Below are positions 8,828 through 34,154 of a stretch of 34,154 bases of DNA, one piece after another. Each line of letters begins with the position of its first letter. Positions within the stretch are counted from its first letter, which is position 1. Under the pieces are notes generated by a model. The model ran no database searches. It was not told the DNA's origin and saw only the letters and a list, made by a program, of their open reading frames with translations. Location: IMG/VR virus record IMGVR_UViG_3300023184_000332, positions 1 to 34,154 of that record; one strand, written 5' to 3'. The position numbers were made by a program, and so were the translations under genes. This DNA comes from a virus (taxonomy: Duplodnaviria; Caudoviricetes).

Positions 8828-11704
8828 ATGGCTGGAAACGGTAATCTGAATTTAACCGGAGAATCGTTTGAAAAGCTAAAGAGCCTTATCGACGATCTTA
8901 CAAAATCAGCCAATCAAGCAAAAGAAGCTATAGCCGGAATATTCAATTCTGGAAAAATAGGAAAAGATTGGTCAAAATCGTTAAACGATGCTGTCAAGGC
9001 ATTGAATGGAGTTTCCAAAAAGAACTCGAATAAATCTTCTGATAGTAGTAAATCTAAAGATAAATCTGATGCCGCAAAAGCAGCGGCTAAATTAATTGAA
9101 AAGGCTGCCCGTGTCGATGCAAAATTGAAGGATGCTGCTGCAAAAGCAGCAGCTAAAGTAATTGCTCAAGCGGCAAGCCTGTCTGCTAAAGCAACAAAGC
9201 AAGCGGCAAGTGCGTCTGCTAAAGCAACAACGCAAGCGGCAAACCTGTCTGCTAAAGCAACAAAGCAAGCGGCAAACTTGTCTGCTAAAGCAATAAAGCA
9301 AGCGGCAAACTTGTCTTCCAGAATGACAAAGCAAGCGGCAAATGCGTCTGCAAGATTAACCAAACAGGCAGCAAGTCTGTCCGCTAAAATAACCGCTCAA
9401 TCTGCCAGTACAGCAGCCAGAATGACAACGCAAGCGGCAAACTTGTCTTCCAGAATGACAAGGCAAGCGGCAAATGCGTATGCAAGAGCAACAGCCCAAG
9501 CGTCGGCACAGCAAGCCGCACAAGCAAGGGCAGCAGCCAGAATGACAACGCAAGCGGCAAATGCTTCTGCCAGAATAACAATTCAGGCGGCAAATGCGTC
9601 CGCAAGATTAACCAGCCAAGCGGCAAGAGCAAGAGCGGCACAGGTAATTTCTGCGGCAAGAGCAGCTAATGCTGCGGCTAAACCGGCTGCAACCAAAAAA
9701 TCGTTCTTGAATATGGGATTCATAGATAGGCTTGTCCAAGCATCTACATTAAAAGAAAGGATTCGGATCGCTTCATCAATGTTTTTTGGTGGAAAAAGTG
9801 CAGGACAACAATATAGAAACCAAAACGGAAAAGGTGGAAGTTTTGCCAACACGGGCGGAAACTTGTTTTCAAGGTATGGCGGCGCAGGTGCTTTAGGTGG
9901 AGTCCTTGGAAAATTCCGTGTGTTTCAAAAACCGTTCCCAGGATCAGAAAGAAACCAGTTTGCACTTGGAGACAGCACGGCGGCATTTGCCAATATAATA
10001 CATGGTGCTGGAATGACAGTAAAAGGTGTATTTTCCGGTTTAACTTCGGCGGCATCGTTGGCAGCAAAAGGATTGGCTTCTATACCTGTAGGAATAGTAT
10101 CGTTGCTCAATCCTGCTGTTGGCGCACTTCTTTCAAGCGTAAACGATATGTTTTTTGGTATATTTAACACACTATCAGCCGCTATATCAGGCGTTATAGG
10201 GTCTCTTACCAACCTTTCTACAGCACTTCTTGGATTTGCATCAAGAGCGGTTGAATCTGCATCAAAATTTACCGAAACCGTTAATGCTGCAAAAGTTGTA
10301 ACAGGGGTTGAAACTGGCAATAAATTAAAAACAACTGCAATTGAACTTCAAAGAAATTACGGATTGTCGGCCATAGATAGTATGCGTGGCATGGGAAGAA
10401 TTGCCGGAATGCTTGTCCAGCAAGGCGGGTTTACCCAAAAAGAAGCCGGAATCCAGTCCGAAGAAATAGCCAGACAGTTGGCTGACGTAGCATCTGTCAA
10501 TAACAGAAACATAGAAGATCTTATGCGCGATATGATGTCCGGTCTTGCCGGACGATTTACGCCTATGAGAAAAAACATGATGGGATTTCAAGCTCCTGTT
10601 CTTGATATTATGGCCAAAAATAAAGGGATAGCAAATCCAAATCTTCGTACCGATTTAGTCGCAAGAACAAAAATGTTCATAGGGGAATTTACACGCCAAG
10701 CGGGACTGTTTGCAGGCGACTTGGAAAACACAAGGTTTGAATTTGCCAACCAGAAAAGGAAATTCCTTGGAGGATTTGAGGCACTTTTTATGTCTGTAGG
10801 CCAAATACTTGAGCCGTTTGCCAAAGTTGTGCTATTTGCTGCAAATGATCTTATGGATCAATTGCTTTCAATAATAGAACCGTTCGCAGTTAATCCGTTC
10901 CAGACATTCAAAACGGAAATAGAAAGTTTTGCGTCGTATGTGTCTTACGCTAAAAACGTAATTATTTCTATGGTAAAACAAATATGGAGTTTAAGACAAG
11001 AGATTTCTGAACTTGCCATAAACTTAGCAAATTTTGGATTGGAAATAGCTAGGGCAGTTTTGAATATCACTTTGGCTGTACTTAATGGGGCATTTGCAAT
11101 TACCGATGCGTTTGGCGGGATAGTCGCTACAAGCGAACTTCTTGCGTCGTCATTGCAAGGACTTTCCCGTTTGATAAATTTTCTTTCTGGTGGTCCGATG
11201 ATGGGAGCGATAGTGGGAGGAATGGCGGCTCCGCTGTTGGCTCCACTGGTGGGTCCGGTGGGTCCACTGGTGGGTCCGCTGATTGGAGCGATGGTGGGAG
11301 GAGTGGGTAAACCAAATAAAAACAAGCCATTTGATCGTGTTGACGTTATGCAAAAAAAACTTATGGATAATCTTGGAAAGATTGATTTAGATATGAACGA
11401 TGTGCTTGACTGGTTCAAAAACGCTGCGCCAGCGGCAGCAAAAGCGGGCAACGTAGCACCACAAGACCCCCTTGCGGCGGCAGGAAGAATGGTACAATAT
11501 TTTGATCCTGCGGCCTTTAGAGATGCCGTGCAAGAGAGAGAAATGGGCGTTCAAACAAGGATTGCAAATGCGGCAGAAAAAATACTTCTGGTTCTTGAAA
11601 AACCAGACCCATTACACCCAAAAATTGCAGGACCAATGGCTGTGCCTATCGGCCTTGGCGCGATGGGCGTGCTTGAAGGAATGAAACGAGTAGCTAAACC
11701 ATGA
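8828..11704 (+). CDS. Tail tape measure protein
   Basis: 958 aa, Ala/Gly-rich and helical, with core 'ASKFTETVN..LADVASVNN..SGLAG' and hydrophobic segments; GAGG RBS. Confidence 0.85.
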   Translation: MAGNGNLNLTGESFEKLKSLIDDLTKSANQAKEAIAGIFNSGKIGKDWSKSLNDAVKALNGVSKKNSNKSSDSSKSKDKSDAAKAAAKLIEKAARVDAKLKDAAAKAAAKVIAQAASLSAKATKQAASASAKATTQAANLSAKATKQAANLSAKAIKQAANLSSRMTKQAANASARLTKQAASLSAKITAQSASTAARMTTQAANLSSRMTRQAANAYARATAQASAQQAAQARAAARMTTQAANASARITIQAANASARLTSQAARARAAQVISAARAANAAAKPAATKKSFLNMGFIDRLVQASTLKERIRIASSMFFGGKSAGQQYRNQNGKGGSFANTGGNLFSRYGGAGALGGVLGKFRVFQKPFPGSERNQFALGDSTAAFANIIHGAGMTVKGVFSGLTSAASLAAKGLASIPVGIVSLLNPAVGALLSSVNDMFFGIFNTLSAAISGVIGSLTNLSTALLGFASRAVESASKFTETVNAAKVVTGVETGNKLKTTAIELQRNYGLSAIDSMRGMGRIAGMLVQQGGFTQKEAGIQSEEIARQLADVASVNNRNIEDLMRDMMSGLAGRFTPMRKNMMGFQAPVLDIMAKNKGIANPNLRTDLVARTKMFIGEFTRQAGLFAGDLENTRFEFANQKRKFLGGFEALFMSVGQILEPFAKVVLFAANDLMDQLLSIIEPFAVNPFQTFKTEIESFASYVSYAKNVIISMVKQIWSLRQEISELAINLANFGLEIARAVLNITLAVLNGAFAITDAFGGIVATSELLASSLQGLSRLINFLSGGPMMGAIVGGMAAPLLAPLVGPVGPLVGPLIGAMVGGVGKPNKNKPFDRVDVMQKKLMDNLGKIDLDMNDVLDWFKNAAPAAAKAGNVAPQDPLAAAGRMVQYFDPAAFRDAVQEREMGVQTRIANAAEKILLVLEKPDPLHPKIAGPMAVPIGLGAMGVLEGMKRVAKP
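9167..9631 (+). repeat. 33-bp (11-aa) tandem repeats in the tape measure gene
   Basis: About 14 units like CAAGCGGCAAACYTGTCTGCTAAAGCAACAAAG (QAANLSAKATK), starting 9167, 9200, 9233 ... 9497, then 9551, 9584, 9617. Confidence 0.9.
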
Positions 11705-15406: not shown

Positions 15407-16965
15407 TTGGAATTACCAAGACGCTTGCCTATTTCGATGGACGCCTTTTCAAATGTCATATGTCTTGCTGTATGGGCATTTACGCCAAGAGACACAAGAA
15501 GGTTTAGCTGCCTGATCGAACATAGGCCCGACTCTTTACGCTCAAACATCGTTTTTATGATTCGACTGGCCTGTATTTTTGAAAGTTGTTGCGAGTCCGC
15601 AAAGCCAAACTTTTTAAGGAGATTGACTTGAGGAAGCGTAGCGTGTGCAGACAACGATTGACCTACCGAAAGAACACCAAGATTCTCAGCGGCCTGAAAT
15701 GGATTGACTTCAACCCGCCTGTAGTTTAGATCCAGCTTTGCAACGGAAACAGAAAGCAGTTCGCGTTGTTTTTTTACCTCATTCTCTGCCCTTTCTATCG
15801 CGTCCCACAGATTCACCTCTTTTTCTTCCTTGGAAATCTTGTCAACAATCTTTTTGACATCAAAGGGAAGTTCAGCAAGAGAACTTGGCCCGATCAAATC
15901 CATGTCTGTTGTGTGGTTGAAGTCGATAATCTTGGCAAATTTCTTGCCAGCAAACAGTCTGGTTGAACGTCCTACCTGTTGAGCGTAAACAATTCGGCTT
16001 TTGGTCGGACGAACGACAACACATTCGGTCGCCTTATCGTCAAAACCTTCGCCCAAAAGATTACAGTTTACAATCACTTGGAACTCAGCGGCCTGATAGC
16101 CACGGATGATATCGGATCTATCTTTGCAATCTCCGCTAACCCATTTAGATCTTACTCCAAGCTGATTCAAAGCAGACGACATAGCCATAGAACTTGCCAC
16201 GCAAGGCATAAAGACCATCGTTTGAGCATTGCCTATTTCTTTCGTAATGGCATTGCTGAAAATTTCAATGAATGGCTGTATCGCTTTGCCAAGATCACCA
16301 AGATTGTAATCGCCGCCCTTGCCTATCGTCCTACAGTCTCTAAGATCAGCACCAACATTGATGCGGATAAACTTCAGCGGCGTCAAGAAAGGCCCTTCTT
16401 GATCGTGTATGGCGTCCCATAGGTTATAAGAATAGATGACTTCAGTAAAATGCCTTAGACTCTTTTTGTCGGATCGGTCTATTGTTGCCGTGATGCCAAG
16501 CCGCTTTGCCTTATGGAAATGCTCAAACACGGTCACATAAGTAGACGCTGATGCGTGATGACATTCGTCAACAATAATCAGATCGAACTCGTCTTCTTTC
16601 CAGTTTTTTATTCTGGATGACATAGTTTGCACTGTAGCAACAACAACCTGGGCTGGATAAAGGGCATCAGCACGCCACTTTCCTTGCTCTCTTCCTGTAG
16701 ACAAACCGCTATTGTCAAAGCAGTTACAAGCTTGAGTAATAAGTTCGTGCCTGTGTGCCAAAACAAGAACTCGATTGACTTTGTTTTGCTGAAAGCACCT
16801 TCTTATAAGCTCTCCGGCCATTGGAGTTTTGCCGGTTCCGGTAGCCATCTGAAGAATTCCGCTCGGCATTTCCTTTTCGTAAAGCCAATCTATCGCTGCA
16901 TCTACGGCTTTATCTTGGTAATGTCGCATGGTAAACAAAGAAGGCCCAATTGTGTCAAATAGCAT
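15403..16965 (-). CDS. Superfamily 2 DExH helicase
   Basis: MRHYQ Q-motif, MATGTGKT, DECHH, TAT, LGEGFD and QQVGRSTR motifs. Confidence 0.92.
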   Translation of the reverse strand: MLFDTIGPSLFTMRHYQDKAVDAAIDWLYEKEMPSGILQMATGTGKTPMAGELIRRCFQQNKVNRVLVLAHRHELITQACNCFDNSGLSTGREQGKWRADALYPAQVVVATVQTMSSRIKNWKEDEFDLIIVDECHHASASTYVTVFEHFHKAKRLGITATIDRSDKKSLRHFTEVIYSYNLWDAIHDQEGPFLTPLKFIRINVGADLRDCRTIGKGGDYNLGDLGKAIQPFIEIFSNAITKEIGNAQTMVFMPCVASSMAMSSALNQLGVRSKWVSGDCKDRSDIIRGYQAAEFQVIVNCNLLGEGFDDKATECVVVRPTKSRIVYAQQVGRSTRLFAGKKFAKIIDFNHTTDMDLIGPSSLAELPFDVKKIVDKISKEEKEVNLWDAIERAENEVKKQRELLSVSVAKLDLNYRRVEVNPFQAAENLGVLSVGQSLSAHATLPQVNLLKKFGFADSQQLSKIQASRIIKTMFERKESGLCSIRQLNLLVSLGVNAHTARHMTFEKASIEIGKRLGNSK

Positions 16966-17350
16966 AACCGTTCCCTTCGCAATTTCGACAGTAACCTATA
17001 TCACCGGCCCCCGTGCCACGACATTTACTGCATACGTGCCACATCCTCGGAGACCTTACCAGCGGCTTGCAAAGACGTTTTTTTACAGGCGAATCCAATC
17101 CGCTGTCGTCTTCTATGACTTTTGCAGAAATCGTGTTCATCATGATCTTTACGTTCTTCCAGATTTTGTAGTCTTGTTCGATTTTTGCTCTCTGCTGACC
17201 AGAAAGCATGTTCCTGATTAGGCTATAGGCCATTTCATCTGCATCGGGTGGTTCTGGTGCAAGAGAAACGACCTTGACCACAAGCGGAATATCGGGTGCA
17301 TCATTCTCTGATTTACGGATAGCCGCTTGGATCATGGCGTTGTAATTCAT
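16955..17350 (-). CDS. Hypothetical protein with C-terminal zinc finger
   Basis: CSKCRGTG...CRNCEGNG (DnaJ-type CxxCxGxG pairs). Confidence 0.65.
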   Translation of the reverse strand: MNYNAMIQAAIRKSENDAPDIPLVVKVVSLAPEPPDADEMAYSLIRNMLSGQQRAKIEQDYKIWKNVKIMMNTISAKVIEDDSGLDSPVKKRLCKPLVRSPRMWHVCSKCRGTGAGDIGYCRNCEGNGYAI

Positions 17351-21289: not shown

Positions 21290-21350
21290 TGGTGAATTTG
21301 TGCTAAGATGGAAAAGTGAGCGCACAACTTTTGGATCAAAAAGGGCGAAC

Positions 21351-22055
21351 GTGATAAAAAAAACCAAACCACACAAATCAACCAACGACAAAACCGCAAC
21401 TGTTATAGATTGGAAAAAAGATGTAGACCTTGACGGGAAAGTATTTTCTGGAAGAAGCGATGGACTGGACGCAAATAATGTTCCGTCTATTGAGGTTCTT
21501 GCGTCAACGCAGGCTCCTGTAAAGATTGATCCAAGGTTAAATTATGGGAGAGTCAAAGAAAGAATCGAAAAGCAATGGCCCAATTTGATTTTAGCCGCAA
21601 ATAACGGCTACGAGTTTGCTTCGATGGCCAAGGCTATTGGTATTTCGCTGCGGGCAATGCAGATCTATTTACAAAAAAATCCTGAGCGAAAACGCGAACT
21701 TATCCAGGGTCGATTGAAGATTAGGGATGTGGCTATCGGGGTAATCCTTAATGCCGCAAATAAAGGAAACTGGATACCAGCCGCATGGCTTCTTGAGCGA
21801 CTTTACTGGCAAGAGTTCGCAAAACCTGAAGTAAGGTTGCAGTTACTTGACAGAGTGACAAATCTGACCGAAGTATCTCAGACATTTGGCGGAAAATCTC
21901 TCCAAGAAATCGGCAACGAATTAAGGGAAGTTCATGGCGAAAACCCAAATTACAAACGAAGAATTGAGCAGTCGCAGGTTTGCGCTTCAGAAAATGGAGC
22001 CAAACTGGATCATGGAAGGATCAAAAACGGTCAAGAAGAGGGTGAACCAAACTGA
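21351..22055 (+). CDS. terS: Terminase small subunit (putative)
   Basis: HTH-like 'ASMAKAIGISLRAMQIYL' and 'WIPAAWLLER' motif; directly upstream of terL; start uncertain (21300 or 21351). Confidence 0.65.
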   Translation: MIKKTKPHKSTNDKTATVIDWKKDVDLDGKVFSGRSDGLDANNVPSIEVLASTQAPVKIDPRLNYGRVKERIEKQWPNLILAANNGYEFASMAKAIGISLRAMQIYLQKNPERKRELIQGRLKIRDVAIGVILNAANKGNWIPAAWLLERLYWQEFAKPEVRLQLLDRVTNLTEVSQTFGGKSLQEIGNELREVHGENPNYKRRIEQSQVCASENGAKLDHGRIKNGQEEGEPN

Positions 22056-23211
22056 GTGGACTGTTCCTCAGATGCTGTTCTGGACTGACGAATCAAGGCA
22101 AAGGCTGTTTTGTGGTGGTGTTGGAGCAGGAAAAACCTACGCTGGATGTGTAGAGATTGTAAATCAGCCTCCAAACACACTTGGCATAGCCATAAGTCCT
22201 ACTTACACAATGCTTAAAGATACGACACTAAGGACGTTTCTTGAACTTTATGAAGGTTCTGGACTTATTGTGTCGTTCAATAGGACTGATATGTCCATGA
22301 TTCTGAAAGGAAATCGCACAGTTTTATGGAGATCAGCAGATAAACCTGAAAAGCTTCGCGGAATCAATGCGGGGTGGGCATGGATGGATGAAGCGGCCTT
22401 TTGCGAAGAGGAAGCGTACAATATTGTTTTGGGAAGATTGAGGCGTCAGCCTGGAAAGCTGTGGCTAACAACGACTCCAAACGGAAAGCAGAATTGGGTT
22501 TACAGAATTAGCCAAGGCCATGCCGTTTCTGTAACAAGGGCTTCAACCAGAACCAATCAGTTTAACCCAGAATTTTATGTAACCCAAATGCTTTCGTCGT
22601 ATGATCCCAAAAGGGCACTCCAAGAAATTGATGCTGAATTTGTGGACACTGACGGAGCATTAATGAAACGAGCCTGGTTCCAAAAATGGGAAGGCCTTGT
22701 CCCCGAAAGGTTGCAGTTATGCCGATCATGGGATTCGGCGGCTACTGAATCCGGTGGAGATTATACAGTCGGTATGCTTATGGCAAACGTGGTCGGAACC
22801 GACAAGATTATCATTACGGATGTACTTAGAGGGCAGTATTCTGCGGACACTGTAGACGCAATGATCCGGACTTGCGCGGACACTGACGGCCAAAAAGTAT
22901 CGGTAGTTCTTGAGCAAGAACCTGGCAGTGCCGGTAAAAGGCTCTTAACGCAACAGGTGAGGGCTTTGCACGGTCATAGGGTTCAATGGTACGCTTCTGG
23001 TCAAAAGAAGCTTGCAAGGGCTGTTCCGGTCGCAAGAGCAGCCGCACAAGGCAGAGTGTACTACCTTGAGGGCGAATGGAATGAAGCGTTTTTTACAGAG
23101 ATTGAGTCCTTCACTGGTACTGTTGTCGATGAACACGATGACCAAGTTGACGCAATGAGCCTTGGATTTACGCATCTTGAAGGAAACATGCGAAGGGTTA
23201 TTGCTGTGTGA
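21934..23211 (+). CDS. terL: Terminase large subunit
   Basis: Walker A GGVGAGKT, Walker B WAWMDEAA, TTTP coupling motif, nuclease RSWDSAA...HDDQVDA; start may be 21994 or 22012. Confidence 0.92.
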   Translation: MAKTQITNEELSSRRFALQKMEPNWIMEGSKTVKKRVNQTEWTVPQMLFWTDESRQRLFCGGVGAGKTYAGCVEIVNQPPNTLGIAISPTYTMLKDTTLRTFLELYEGSGLIVSFNRTDMSMILKGNRTVLWRSADKPEKLRGINAGWAWMDEAAFCEEEAYNIVLGRLRRQPGKLWLTTTPNGKQNWVYRISQGHAVSVTRASTRTNQFNPEFYVTQMLSSYDPKRALQEIDAEFVDTDGALMKRAWFQKWEGLVPERLQLCRSWDSAATESGGDYTVGMLMANVVGTDKIIITDVLRGQYSADTVDAMIRTCADTDGQKVSVVLEQEPGSAGKRLLTQQVRALHGHRVQWYASGQKKLARAVPVARAAAQGRVYYLEGEWNEAFFTEIESFTGTVVDEHDDQVDAMSLGFTHLEGNMRRVIAV

Positions 23212-23217
23212 TGAGTC

Positions 23218-23682
23218 TTAATCAGTGATATTGTGATATGAAAGTGCTATGCAAATAGCGTCAGACTCACCATCGGTAAGATCATCAAGTGAAGGGTATT
23301 TTTCTTTGCAATAAACGATTGAGCGTTTTTTGCCAAGTTTTTTGTCAATACCATCGAGAACTTTTTGCCAAGTTTTAGGCATGACGAATTCGTATGGTAT
23401 TCCAAGTCCCGAAGACAACCCCTGCAAGATTCCAAAGCATTGCCCGAAAGTAAACATTGACAAAACTCCCTGCTTAGGCATTGCGTGAACCCTTTCGATG
23501 ACGATTGACGTTCCATGTGGAAGTGTTCGCCAATCTTCAAATATTTTTTTTATAGATTGGCAGTCAATCACTTTTTTTGTACCGAATTTTACAACTGGCA
23601 TTTCGTATGTCGCTAGGACATCGCGGTTTTTAACAATTGCAATTCCGCCAGATAAGCTGGGGTCAACTCCGATGATTATCAT
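23218..23682 (-). CDS. RuvC-like Holliday junction resolvase
   Basis: IIGVDPSLSGGIA, IVIERVHAMPKQGV..FTFG, PKTWQK and DGESDAICIA motifs. Confidence 0.85.
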   Translation of the reverse strand: MIIIGVDPSLSGGIAIVKNRDVLATYEMPVVKFGTKKVIDCQSIKKIFEDWRTLPHGTSIVIERVHAMPKQGVLSMFTFGQCFGILQGLSSGLGIPYEFVMPKTWQKVLDGIDKKLGKKRSIVYCKEKYPSLDDLTDGESDAICIALSYHNITD

Positions 23683-25803: not shown

Positions 25804-25895
25804 TGTCGTCTCTCTCTAAGCATGTTGTAAACGGCCAGCATTAAAGCTGCGGACATGCCGGCTATCGAAGATACGATAATATCAAACGGCGTCAT
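25800..25895 (-). CDS. 31-aa putative membrane peptide (MTPFDIIVSSIAGMSAALMLAVYNMLRERRQ)
   Basis: Hand-translated; ATGA-coupled at both ends; hydrophobic stretch followed by a basic tail. Confidence 0.55.
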   Translation of the reverse strand: MTPFDIIVSSIAGMSAALMLAVYNMLRERRQ

Positions 25896-26371
25896 TGCAC
25901 TTGGCCCTTCTTAAACTCGTGATACTTGGCGATTGCAAACGCTGAACGCTTATCGCTTGCTCCCCGTAGCAGGTATAGCGGATCGCCCTTCTTGCCGGAC
26001 GGCCCGTAGATTGATTCCAAGCCAGCCCTGAGCGTTGCATCGTTAAGCTTGCCGCCAGCCGTAATCCACTGACCATATTCGCGGCGTGTGTACACGGCAA
26101 GCGTCAGGGCCTCATAGATGGCAACCCTCTTCAGTTCCCCGATAAAATACATCGTCTGGATCGACGATTCACCTACCGGACGGCCTTGGCAAGCAAACCC
26201 CTCGACTGCAAATTCGTGAGATTTTGCCCAAGGCGATTGCATGATTTTAACGAGTTCGGCGTTTTCAATCTTATCCGCCATTTGGATGTTAAAGATTTTG
26301 CTATGATCGCATGCAATTATCATGCATATTCCGCTATGCGTGCTTCCGGGGTCGATTCCGGTAATTACCAT
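25892..26371 (-). CDS. Second RuvC/RNase H-fold nuclease
   Basis: ITGIDPGSTHSG, FAVE, TMYFIGEL and SDKRSAFAIA. Confidence 0.7.
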   Translation of the reverse strand: MVITGIDPGSTHSGICMIIACDHSKIFNIQMADKIENAELVKIMQSPWAKSHEFAVEGFACQGRPVGESSIQTMYFIGELKRVAIYEALTLAVYTRREYGQWITAGGKLNDATLRAGLESIYGPSGKKGDPLYLLRGASDKRSAFAIAKYHEFKKGQVQ

Positions 26372-31141: not shown

Positions 31142-31357
31142 TCACCTTTTTCTATCCGCAACCAAGCGGATTTTGTTGCCAAACGTAGGCTTTTCTTGAG
31201 GGTCGAATTGTGATATACGAAACCGGTCGTAACCGTTTTCTATGGCCCATTTTGTGGCCTTGTCAATGGCGTTGGCGTCTGTTGTGATGATTTCTTCCTG
31301 CCAGTCTTCGTTGTCGATCTTGACGGCATAGAGTATCGTCTCGATTTTGGAATTCAT
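31142..31357 (-). CDS. Hypothetical early protein
   Basis: AAGGTGA RBS; 71 aa. Confidence 0.65.
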   Translation of the reverse strand: MNSKIETILYAVKIDNEDWQEEIITTDANAIDKATKWAIENGYDRFRISQFDPQEKPTFGNKIRLVADRKR

Positions 31358-31369
31358 AATATTTCACCT

Positions 31370-31966
31370 TTAGTTGAACGGACGAAGTTCTGATAACGCT
31401 TTAGAAAGTGCGTTTTCAGCATCTCGGTACCGCTTTCTTTTTTCCAAAACCTCTGCAACCGTGTAATTGGTCCTGTGGCCATCACCAAACGGAGGGGAGA
31501 TCGAATCTAGGAATAAGATAAACTCACGGCTCCCATGCGTTCCGATACATACGTCAACCTCGTGGCAGATGCTAATATTAGGGACTGAATAAGAGACTCT
31601 CCACGCAAGAAAGCTCAAATTAGTGACACGACGGCACACTGTAATGTTACCAGTGTTTGGAAGGTCAGGAATTTTGATGCCGGCAACGAAAGTGCCGTCA
31701 GCCTTTAAGATCTTTTTTCCGACATATGGCGCGAAGAATTTAGTCAATTCCTCATAAACCTTATTTGCGCAATCATTTGCAAGATTTACGGCAGAAACTT
31801 GGGCAGTCACTGCGGCCAAATCTGATTCTTTACCACGGATAAGTGCGGTGGATTCCAGCGTGTCGGCTCCTTTGAGTGCTGATATCAGCGCGTCATAAAA
31901 ATCGGCGGCGTCTTCGAGTTCTTCTTCCGTCGTGTGTTGTAGTTCTCTACTGTTGCGATCAATCAT
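31370..31966 (-). CDS. Hypothetical early protein
   Basis: GGGAG RBS; 198 aa. Confidence 0.65.
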   Translation of the reverse strand: MIDRNSRELQHTTEEELEDAADFYDALISALKGADTLESTALIRGKESDLAAVTAQVSAVNLANDCANKVYEELTKFFAPYVGKKILKADGTFVAGIKIPDLPNTGNITVCRRVTNLSFLAWRVSYSVPNISICHEVDVCIGTHGSREFILFLDSISPPFGDGHRTNYTVAEVLEKRKRYRDAENALSKALSELRPFN

Positions 31967-31990
31967 TGAACTATCTCCCTGTTAGCGGTG

Positions 31991-32020
31991 AAAACCGGAC
32001 GCAACAACACGTTGCGCCCG
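31991..32020 (-). terminator. Putative intrinsic terminator/processing hairpin
   Basis: Minus strand CGGGCGCAAC-GTGTT-GTTGCGTCCG followed by GTTTT, in an intergenic gap. Confidence 0.45.
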
Positions 32021-32027
32021 CTGCTGT

Positions 32028-32297
32028 TTATCTGTTGGCCCAAACCAGCTGGACGCCTGCGTGGGTAAGAGTGTCAAGGTCATCCAAGAGCTGATACCCG
32101 TCAATGTCATCGACATACAAAGCCTTTTCACCCCTCAAAATAATCACCTTTGCGTCAGCCATGTTGACCCACTCCATCGTCCCGTCGTCTTGTTCTCCGA
32201 AGCTTTCGACTCGGTAGACCGCCTCCGGGTGGGCGGCGGCTACAGCCTCGAAAACGTCAGCCCATGTCAAAATATCCGGCACAATTTGATCTTTCAT
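32028..32297 (-). CDS. Acidic hypothetical early protein
   Basis: GGGAG RBS; ATGA overlap. Confidence 0.65.
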   Translation of the reverse strand: MKDQIVPDILTWADVFEAVAAAHPEAVYRVESFGEQDDGTMEWVNMADAKVIILRGEKALYVDDIDGYQLLDDLDTLTHAGVQLVWANR

Positions 32298-32665
32298 TTC
32301 TGGCTCCCGTTAGTTGTTTCAAAGGCCAGCCAAGCGGCTCTAAAGACCGTCATGAATCGATCGCAGATTGCGGGGTTCGTTTCGTACTGCCACCCCGACC
32401 AATTTGCAATAAAATCTTGCTTCGGCTTAGGAAGTGACAAAAACTTGTCAACTGTAAGCGACTCAAAGAATCTGATGCGGCGGTCTTCAATGTCATGGCT
32501 GTTGAGGACCGTGTTGAACAAAACCGGGCTGGATACCGTGATTGTTACCTGACCGGACCCGTTGCAAGCGTAGCACATGCCGTTGTTAATGTGGCGAAAG
32601 GCTTGAATCACGCCGGTTCCGTCACATTTTCCACATGAATCAAAGATCTTTGTTGTTGCGTTCAT
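32294..32665 (-). CDS. Zinc-finger early protein
   Basis: CGKCDGTG...CYACNGSG; start MNATTK. Confidence 0.7.
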   Translation of the reverse strand: MNATTKIFDSCGKCDGTGVIQAFRHINNGMCYACNGSGQVTITVSSPVLFNTVLNSHDIEDRRIRFFESLTVDKFLSLPKPKQDFIANWSGWQYETNPAICDRFMTVFRAAWLAFETTNGSQK

Positions 32666-32679
32666 CGTTCTGGCTCCCG

Positions 32680-33066
32680 TTAGTTGTTGCGAAACACCCA
32701 AAAATCCCCGTTGTGATCGGAAGTGGAATAATCATGCCTTAAATTGGCCTCCCATGTGGCCTCGTAATCAACCTGTAGCCACGCCGGGAGCTTGATTCCA
32801 TCGTTTTCCAAAAATTCATCGACCAACTCTTGCCAACAAGCTCGCTCGCTGTCATATTTGCCCTGTAAATCATCTCGGGCAGTTCTGAGGTCACAAACAA
32901 CATCTGAGAGGTTTTCACTGGTGGCATCCATCCAGGCCGTCAAAAGGTCTCGATCCTCTTCTTTTAGCTCGATCCAGTCGAAATCAAACGGACTTACTCG
33001 GTTTTCATTGCCGGTTTCGTTTCCGTTGGTGTTTTCCGCTGTTTCGGTTCCGGCTGTGTCTTCCAT
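32680..33066 (-). CDS. ArdA-like acidic anti-restriction (DNA-mimic) protein
   Basis: Very acidic; QGKYDSE...ELVDE...LPAWLQVDYEA...L..DY...WVFRN resembles the ArdA C-terminal region. Confidence 0.65.
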   Translation of the reverse strand: MEDTAGTETAENTNGNETGNENRVSPFDFDWIELKEEDRDLLTAWMDATSENLSDVVCDLRTARDDLQGKYDSERACWQELVDEFLENDGIKLPAWLQVDYEATWEANLRHDYSTSDHNGDFWVFRNN

Positions 33067-33119
33067 CGTATCAGTCCTTGTTTGTCAGGTCGTTTCTATT
33101 CCCTTCGTCCCACACCAAT

Positions 33120-33213: not shown

Positions 33214-33242
33214 TAGACAAATTTTGGAATCCGTGTTAAAGT
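33214..33242 (+). promoter_or_regulatory. Putative promoter of the large ncRNA
   Basis: TAGACA-17 bp-TAAAGT with TG extension; ends about 7 nt before the first hairpin at 33250. Confidence 0.5.
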
Positions 33243-33249
33243 GGTAAGT

Positions 33250-33830
33250 AGTCAGAACGGACCCAGGTTGACCCCTATCACCTGCCTTACCGATTCTGGC
33301 TTGACGTAACTACAATCGGGTACAGGCTTTCGGTCGATATCCGGTACGTTGCGTAACAGAAGGTACGATAAGAGCCCGATTCGGGCACACCTAGACGCGA
33401 AATGGATCGCATACTGTTACGCAGCGGTGAGATAGGGGAAATGGCTTTTGAGAGTTGGATCACTGAACACAAACGAGATTCGCCAAGGCGTATCAGAATT
33501 TTGTGAAGCCTACAAAACATAGCCCCCCATTTGGGCCACTTGGTCAGACCACCAGTAGGCGAGAGGTGAGGTATAGTGCTTGAGGGAAAAAGGTTTAACA
33601 AACCTGAGCGAGTTAGTCGCATCAAGCAGGGTCACAGTGGTGGTCGTCCCGTATCCGCAAGTGGTTGACGCCAAAATTGAATCGCGGCTCTGTTCGAACC
33701 TAACAACCGCGCCCGTGCATGGCCCCCAAAGGGCAAAATCAGTCAACGACAGCAGATGCTAGACCTTCCCCATCTCGCAGCGTAACGCCAGTGGAACAAA
33801 CGGTTTGATCCACAGGCACACATGCACGGG
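33250..33830 (+). ncRNA. Candidate large structured non-coding RNA (~580 nt)
   Basis: More than 12 hand-found helices, including 13-bp 33347-33359/33414-33426, 33427-33440/33766-33778 and 10-bp 33712-33721/33821-33830; G-U pairs favour the + strand; no credible ORF. Confidence 0.7.
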
Positions 33831-33928
33831 ATAAAGGTTGTTGCTTGACTTTTCGTAAAACAGTTGTAAAACCTACAGTGGACGTTAGTACATTACTTTA
33901 GTGGCAATTTTGGTGTCCATTTTAGGAC

Positions 33929-34154
33929 CCGCCAGATGGCCCACCGGATGGCCCACCGGATGGCCCACCAGATGACCCACCAGATGGCCCACCGGATGAC
34001 CCGCCGGATAACCCACCGGCGGCCCATCACCAGATGACTCACCGGCGGCCACCACCGGCGGCCCGCCAGATGACCCACTAGATGGCCCACCGGCGGCCAC
34101 CACCAGATGACTCACCGGCGGCCACCACCGGCGGCCACCACCAGATGACTCACC
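33929..34154. repeat. GC-rich short tandem repeat array
   Basis: About 18 units of CCACCRGATGRC (12 nt) and (C/T)CACCGGCGGC(CA) (11-13 nt), running off the window end. Confidence 0.9.

Follow-up and report, generated by a model that had tools for sequence, protein, structure and literature searches.

A predicted structured RNA gene of a tailed phage likely represents a new family of large phage RNAs with a small recurring core

The phage locus and the extent of the RNA element

The window, which is the whole 34,154-base contig that was analyzed, belongs to a tailed phage, and the scan of its 53 proteins showed an HK97-type head, terminase, primase, helicase, sigma factor and thymidylate synthase. 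At least half of the window's words were present in two sequencing runs, which were labeled as lake or freshwater metagenome and of which one may be the source of the contig. The terminase large subunit gene and a 251-aa ORF upstream of it (21300-23211) are the sole + strand genes in a long minus-strand replication/early region, and a diverged group of related phages (clade B, see below) likewise has its terminase upstream of the RNA and oriented in this way. Two separate Holliday-junction-resolvase-like genes are located at 23218-23682 and 25892-26371, and a tape-measure-like gene contains arrays of a 33-bp repeat (9167-9633). Within 31357-33092 the strains in runs X3 and X4 swap two blocks of small genes and keep the RNA.

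The element studied here is ~590 bases long and is without a credible protein gene. It is flanked by a leftward cluster of small genes on one side and by a repeat array at the contig end on the other. The initial annotation had proposed a noncoding RNA at 33250..33830; its 3′ boundary was ~10 nt short, because the element reaches ~33840. On comparative grounds, this stretch is a conserved structured RNA gene on the + strand, from about 33249 to 33840. The features are as follows.

33214..33242, + strand: sigma-70-type promoter, TAGACA-17-TAAAGT with extended TG, 9/12; probable start near 33249
33249..33840, + strand: predicted RNA gene of ~590 nt, both ends estimated; conserved block in contig L001, nhmmer matches in clade B, no Rfam match
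33250..33345, + strand: variable 5′ domain with two hairpins, swapped among clade B variants (three different versions there)
33347..33426, + strand: multi-arm domain with conserved GAUAAG and a GCGA/UCGC arm; compensatory changes read from the sequences
33427..33440, + strand: 5′ strand of the long-range helix, partner 33766-33778; both strands located at these positions
33547..33645, + strand: middle domain of three nested helices with full compensatory change; alignment of 11 sequences
33664..33747, + strand: GUUGAC/GUCAAC helix around the module, crossing helix X; both strands located at these positions
33680..33711, + strand: conserved core module of AAUC, 4-bp variable stem, CUC/A internal loop, 4-bp stem and 7-nt loop; pattern and covariance-model searches
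33712..33830, + strand: helix X (33712-33721 with 33821-33830), immediately 3′ of the module, around a variable 100-nt insert
33831..33839, + strand: A-rich linker and tail; predicted pairing of 33835-33839 with loop 33697-33701; loop–tail scramble test
33926..34154, strand not given: degenerate 12-13-bp repeat array that runs off the contig, neighbor of the RNA gene

Pairing and folding within the window

All helix strands listed in the initial annotation were found where it had placed them, with the long-range 14/13-nt helix requiring one bulged base. Perfect Watson–Crick helices of at least 10 bp were more frequent than in shuffled sequences (2 observed, shuffle mean 0.13, 0/100 shuffles reaching 2), and those of at least 8 bp were not in excess (4 observed, shuffle mean 1.9, 13/100 shuffles reaching 4). 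The folding of the whole region gave a z value of -2.98 on the + strand, with 1/100 shuffles as good, and of -1.36 on the - strand (7/100). While the + strand as a whole thus folded better than shuffled controls, three 200-nt windows across 33401-33800 did not (z +1.9, +0.4 and +0.3), and the description of the region as almost fully base-pairable was overstated. Because the thermodynamic signal is modest, with shorter helices not in excess and a middle 400 nt that folds at shuffle level, the case for the RNA rests on comparison.

Covariation between two diverged clades

The contig L001 carries the RNA almost unchanged behind upstream genes that differ from those of the window, and the first helix of the 5′ domain survives two one-sided changes there. 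When the RNA was compared with 23 phage records found through their capsid, blastn gave one weak match, which was real by nhmmer and corresponds to a single diverged copy (clade B; E 1.2e-7); more clade B variants were added by pattern and terminase searches. In the alignment of the middle domain and the module, which contains 11 sequences from two clades only, 99.4% of the cells were paired, as compared to 29-44% in slid controls, and 13/31 pairs were changed on both sides. In helices 1-3 of the middle domain the pairs changed on both sides were 3/7, 5/7 and 2/6, respectively. Since the 11 sequences fall into two clades, most of the double changes represent one event per pair.

Changes of the same kind were present outside the aligned region. 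In the GAUAAG domain of clade B, AACAG/CUGUU is replaced by GACGG/CCGUC, AGGU/ACCU by AGGC/GCCU, and GCCCG/CGGGC by GGUGA/UCACC; these changes were read directly from the sequences, the automatic alignment having misregistered two of the three helices. In clade B, both bases differ in six of the ten pairs of helix X. The 3′ strand matching 33766-33778, as read by eye, appears to pair in clade B with the transcript start instead. Covariation in homologues, with compensatory changes kept between two diverged clades, thus supports a structured noncoding RNA on the basis of the sequences compared. Together with the conserved promoter position (see below), it supports a structured noncoding RNA on the + strand, as initially proposed, and one whose class Rfam does not contain. 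The proposed pairing CCCCTATC/GATAGGGG did not hold up in the same way: it is identical in L001 and is without a counterpart across the clade B variants, so that comparative support is absent. A palindromic kissing loop at 33693-33700, which L001 keeps and clade B loses, was also rejected.

The surroundings of the RNA show several further features. Short-repeat arrays are present just 3′ of the RNA in both clades (window 33926-34154; L026 1000-1150), with unrelated units, and both clade A contigs end inside the array. In relatives that do not have the RNA, the divergent slot is occupied by other noncoding DNA (L179 16430-17165; L155 7900-8470). In L179 the part at ~16800-17100 is hairpin-rich, with z down to -4.1, and the L155 stretch contains a duplicated 30-nt repeat beside a recombinase-like ORF. 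In one clade B relative, a tRNA-like gene whose anticodon loop is enlarged lies ~8 kb away from the RNA (L167 1852-1925).

A small core module recurs in other phages

The core of the RNA, which the initial annotation had missed, consists of the 32-nt hairpin module at 33680-33711, the 10-bp helix X, and a 3′ tail predicted to pair with the module loop. The initial search pattern was based on the best-conserved segment, and in other contigs that it matched complementarity was retained at the four free positions of the stem. A looser pattern scan of IMG/VR gave at least 118 stretches, at least 78 of them distinct, and among the 78 distinct matches listed 22 had a perfect variable stem of four Watson–Crick pairs, as compared to ~0.3 expected, with one of the 22 being the window RNA's own family. 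Five additional copies of the core were found in metagenome contigs. The AAUC, CUC, UGU and ACAA sequences and the closing G of the module were imposed by the search pattern, and hence several seemingly invariant core bases are not evidence of conservation. A covariance model of the module (R1) found exactly one copy per record in 28/28 records. The members of the family range from ~330 to 700 nt, and their peripheries are unrelated.

One of the carriers is in culture. The Pseudoalteromonas phage Pq0 contains one module copy (E 1.6e-10) followed by helix X and the tail, and it shows a further compensatory change, which is outside the search pattern. The Pq0 element (L396 1255-1720, KR060090) is located between the terminator of the capsid gene and the next gene and is unannotated as RNA; in KR060090 the module is overlapped by a hypothetical ORF of 37 codons, annotated on the other strand.

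The distribution of the module has limits. Model R1 found it in 0/28 related virus records with 45-52% terminase identity, five of which are at least 90% complete, which suggests that the module is dispensable or replaced in that lineage. The same model found nothing in the whole records of phages Alma and RedRock, and none in 151 genomes of one bacterial class, a search that scored only 39 candidates in each genome and had no positive control. In a pattern scan of GTDB the full module was present in 0/13 matches. The single match in plasmids was due to chance, matches in E. coli prophages near dicF contained no module by the covariance model, and those in Arthrobacter phage Casserole and Salinibacter phage M8CRM-1 covered the inner hairpin only.

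Helix X, the tail and the predicted pseudoknot

A strong helix directly follows the module in 33/41 module copies, as compared to 5/88 controls, and an A-rich tail follows this helix in 32/41 copies and 4/88 controls, where the controls were pattern matches without the stem and matches with <200 nt downstream were left out. The inserts within helix X span 97-211 nt among the members. In 21 representatives the module loop formed a mean of 4.9 pairs with its own tail and 3.74 +/- 0.16 with other tails, and 0/5000 scrambles reached the former value; these representatives were chosen by eye for a clear helix X and tail and include a few related pairs, each sequence being counted as an independent case. 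The data suggest a conserved pseudoknot, which is predicted to form between loop 33697-33701 and tail 33835-33839. Helix X corresponds to the 10-bp pairing (33712-21/33821-30) that the initial annotation had described as the pseudoknot; this pairing is real and conserved, while the conserved pseudoknot appears to lie between the loop and the tail.

Helix X crosses both the GUUGAC/GUCAAC helix and the long-range helix, and nested folds forced to hold either helix X or the crossing helices are 0.8 kcal/mol apart. An enclosing helix, formed between the upstream sequence and the interior of helix X, was favored on average in the 21 representatives (20/5000 scrambles reach this level) and was weak in many of them. 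The crossing of helix X could reflect a true pseudoknot, a switch between alternative folds or a contact made between molecules. A G-rich run followed by an AGUA motif recurs inside helix X of L258, L290, L294, L299, L321, L322, L334, L339, L342 and L396; it is absent from helix X of the window and is possibly a second, loop E-like conserved element.

Searches against known RNA families

No match to Rfam 15 at the gathering level was found in the window, and at E up to 10 the element region had one match only, to DUF3268 (E 4.4), which was rejected as chance. The covariance models of OLE, GOLLD (RF02032) and ROOL (RF03087) were unmatched in the window, in clade B and in 36 other loci, at thresholds of E up to 10 in the window and looser than gathering in the 37 other loci. 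ARAGORN found 0 tRNA genes and no tmRNA in the window, and neither ARAGORN nor Rfam gave a tmRNA, RNase P or SRP match there. With 0 tRNA genes, the window does not have the tRNA-island location of GOLLD and ROOL; tRNAs were present in 3/11 and 1/20 other loci scanned at the gathering level.

Introns were considered as well. In the element region there was no match to the RF00029 D5/D6 model or to the D1-D4 models of group II introns, and a custom scan without a positive control found a D5-like hairpin in 0/22 cases. A group I or group II intron was rejected, as there is no interrupted gene, the upstream ORF points away, a repeat array follows downstream, and the neighbors differ between close relatives. 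The ribozyme and riboswitch models of Rfam did not match over the core module in the window or in the 36 loci scanned. A weak hammerhead-like match (E 0.11, below gathering) is located at L299 415-492, ~700 nt upstream of the module.

The element region had no blastn match among 50,697 GenBank phages, and a stretch of L258 gave short chance matches only. A literature search, which mostly covered papers open without subscription, found no published description of the window RNA or the module. The supplementary files searched of one study contained no match, and its alignments may hold members (PMC10690425). The initial annotation had left the choice between a member of a GOLLD/ROOL-like class and a new one; with the models of GOLLD, ROOL, OLE, RNase P, tmRNA and introns unmatched, the first branch falls and the second is kept. 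The window RNA is not GOLLD, ROOL, OLE, an intron or tmRNA. Its pairing is preserved in evolution, Rfam is unmatched, and the small predicted knot is common to RNAs of many other phages, so that the window RNA likely forms a new family among the large orphan phage RNAs, a kind that is already known. In the searches made, this family was not yet catalogued.

Promoter, transcripts and neighboring genes

The promoter-like TAGACA-17-TAAAGT that had been noted upstream of the first helix is present, with a 9/12 match and an extended TG, but by itself it is not above chance, as a mean of 1.2 such sites is expected. The case for it comes from clade B, where an 11/12 promoter is located at -450 from the module, as compared to -466 in the window. 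This conserved position supports the window promoter and fixes the + strand. Promoters of at least 9/12 were present upstream in 14/21 elements, which is a modest excess over the 7.3 expected from shuffles and the 8 on the opposite strand. In a simple scan, 0/18 elements had an intrinsic terminator within 250 nt downstream.

A lake metatranscriptome contains three contigs inside 33263-33791 and, at similar depth, five listed pieces elsewhere in 20 kb. These contigs give a hint only of transcription of the window RNA, as they are unstranded, of low depth and mixed with fragments of further genes, and their run had been selected by its match to the window; the parts of the window without cover by RNA contigs do not indicate silence.

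The neighbors of the module vary and include primase-helicase, terminase small subunit, HNH, portal, holin, ribonucleotide reductase and RNA ligase genes, among others. L196, L291 and L327 have a convergent gene next to the element, which together with the lack of a fixed neighbor fits a free-standing RNA. On the same strand, an ORF begins within 55 nt of helix X in 7/18 representatives that have at least 200 nt downstream.

Possible roles of the RNA

The reading that we favor, at less than even confidence, is a free-standing, stable RNA that has its own promoter, is knotted at its end and binds a conserved host factor during infection. Transcription would start at ~33249, likely from the RNA's own promoter, and the 3′ tail would be tied back into the hairpin loop as the predicted pseudoknot. 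As no intrinsic terminator follows, the 3′ end may be set by trimming up to the knot, which would protect the processed end. The binding surface would combine the two linkers, AAU and AAA, with the CUC/A loop and the short stem whose sequence is conserved. Peripheral domains would be freely swapped around the core, and the RNA would persist as a stable molecule that likely binds the putative host factor. The ORF starts near helix X in 7/18 representatives argue against a stable free RNA, as they would be expected of a leader. A cis-acting leader or put-like antiterminator, whose target would be RNA polymerase or the translation of the gene that follows, is quite improbable. The element often lies between a promoter and a same-strand gene and heads a transcription unit in both clades, but no protein gene precedes the repeats in the window or clade B, the downstream genes of three loci are convergent, a terminator within 250 nt is lacking in 18/18, the neighboring genes have no common function, and the core is 170-470 nt from the promoter. 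A compact predicted pseudoknot whose short stems and linkers are conserved in sequence, a helix X that tolerates inserts of 97-211 nt, the lack of a downstream terminator and gene starts close behind in 7/18 would all suit a new small ribozyme, in which the core cuts or defines an RNA end and the size comes from inserts in variable stems. We consider this unlikely, given that none of the ribozyme models matched the module in the loci scanned, that D5-like hairpins were found in 0/22 by the scan without a positive control, and that the conservation of the core is partly built into the search pattern; contigs are also a data type that cannot reveal a cut site.

It is similarly doubtful that the RNA is an RNA-primed replication origin, whose transcript would refold, invade the template and prime synthesis or load the phage primase-helicase, in the manner of ColE1 RNA II or of the RNA-based origins of mycobacteriophages. 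The position of the element is consistent with this role in L258 and its relatives, where it is directly upstream of primase-helicase, but the complete genome G049 has a P-like helicase loader ~7 kb from the RNA (among the 114 proteins scanned from five genomes, a part of their total), and its RNA is ahead of the terminase region. The module is present as one copy per record (28/28), and no initiator gene was recognized among the 53 proteins of the window, which include primase and helicase; on the other hand, in a relative that is 92% complete the corresponding slot is without the RNA and also without an obvious initiator. Repeat arrays come after the RNA in both clades, but repeats follow in only 3/18 elements, and only 2/7 genomes have their GC-skew minimum at a distance of ~1 kb or less from the RNA, the skew of the window being uninformative. 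The two crossing folds of near-equal energy would fit a refolding transcript, and there is a precedent in mycobacteriophages (PMC7157519), although model R1 does not find the module in Alma and RedRock. A self-assembling RNA cage like ROOL or GOLLD, with the loop–tail and crossing pairings formed between molecules, is very unlikely. Its size and phage origin are similar, some of the covarying kissing loops of ROOL and GOLLD proved to be intermolecular (PMC12286853), and a 10-bp helix that crosses a closed loop might form more easily between molecules. However, neither family is matched by sequence or model, the members of ~330-700 nt have unrelated peripheries, and the sole self-complementary loop of clade A is not kept in clade B.

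It is possible, though rather doubtful, that the core is the active center of a widespread phage RNA machine not catalogued so far. This would be a ribozyme of a new class or an RNA that starts phage DNA replication with no initiator protein, and it would occur once per genome in dozens of unrelated lineages, with exchangeable domains of up to 700 nt. To our knowledge, large structured RNAs are rare, and most of those explained do chemistry or run central processes. With these findings an orphan gap becomes a family that has a conserved core of defined extent, a predicted pseudoknot that covaries and is open to mutation and rescue, and the cultured carrier Pq0, which together make the role of phage orphan RNAs directly testable. 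The core could also be used as a search handle for RNAs that have no overall sequence similarity.

Comparison with known systems

The small self-cleaving phage ribozymes twister, pistol and theta have a pseudoknot between a loop and the 3′ strand and A-rich linkers, and they tolerate large inserts. The core resembles them in its compact predicted loop–3′ strand pseudoknot, A-rich linkers and insert-tolerant stems, while it differs in having no model match, another helix order and a single copy. Phage group II introns (PMC12350094) are similar in their length of ~600 nt, and the variable pairing of a loop with a distant strand recalls EBS1-IBS1; unlike them, the window RNA is without a D1-D4 or D5/D6 match, a D5-like hairpin or an interrupted gene.

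The prophages of parABS mycobacteriophages have RNA-based origins (PMC7157519). Such origins and ColE1 RNA II are like the window RNA in being promoter-driven, noncoding, 400-600 nt long, present once per genome and sometimes beside replication genes. The window RNA differs in that its module is absent from Alma and RedRock, which carry such ori RNAs, parABS and integrase are unrecognized in the window, and the position relative to replication genes is inconsistent.

ROOL and GOLLD are described as large, multi-domain, pseudoknotted phage RNAs of unknown function (PMC12286853). The window RNA is likewise large, multi-domain, predicted to be pseudoknotted and phage-borne, and it shares with GOLLD, as described there, a variable 5′ part and a conserved 3′ part. 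In contrast to ROOL and GOLLD, it is unmatched by either model and has no tRNA gene in the window, and it is defined by a small portable core surrounded by unrelated peripheries.
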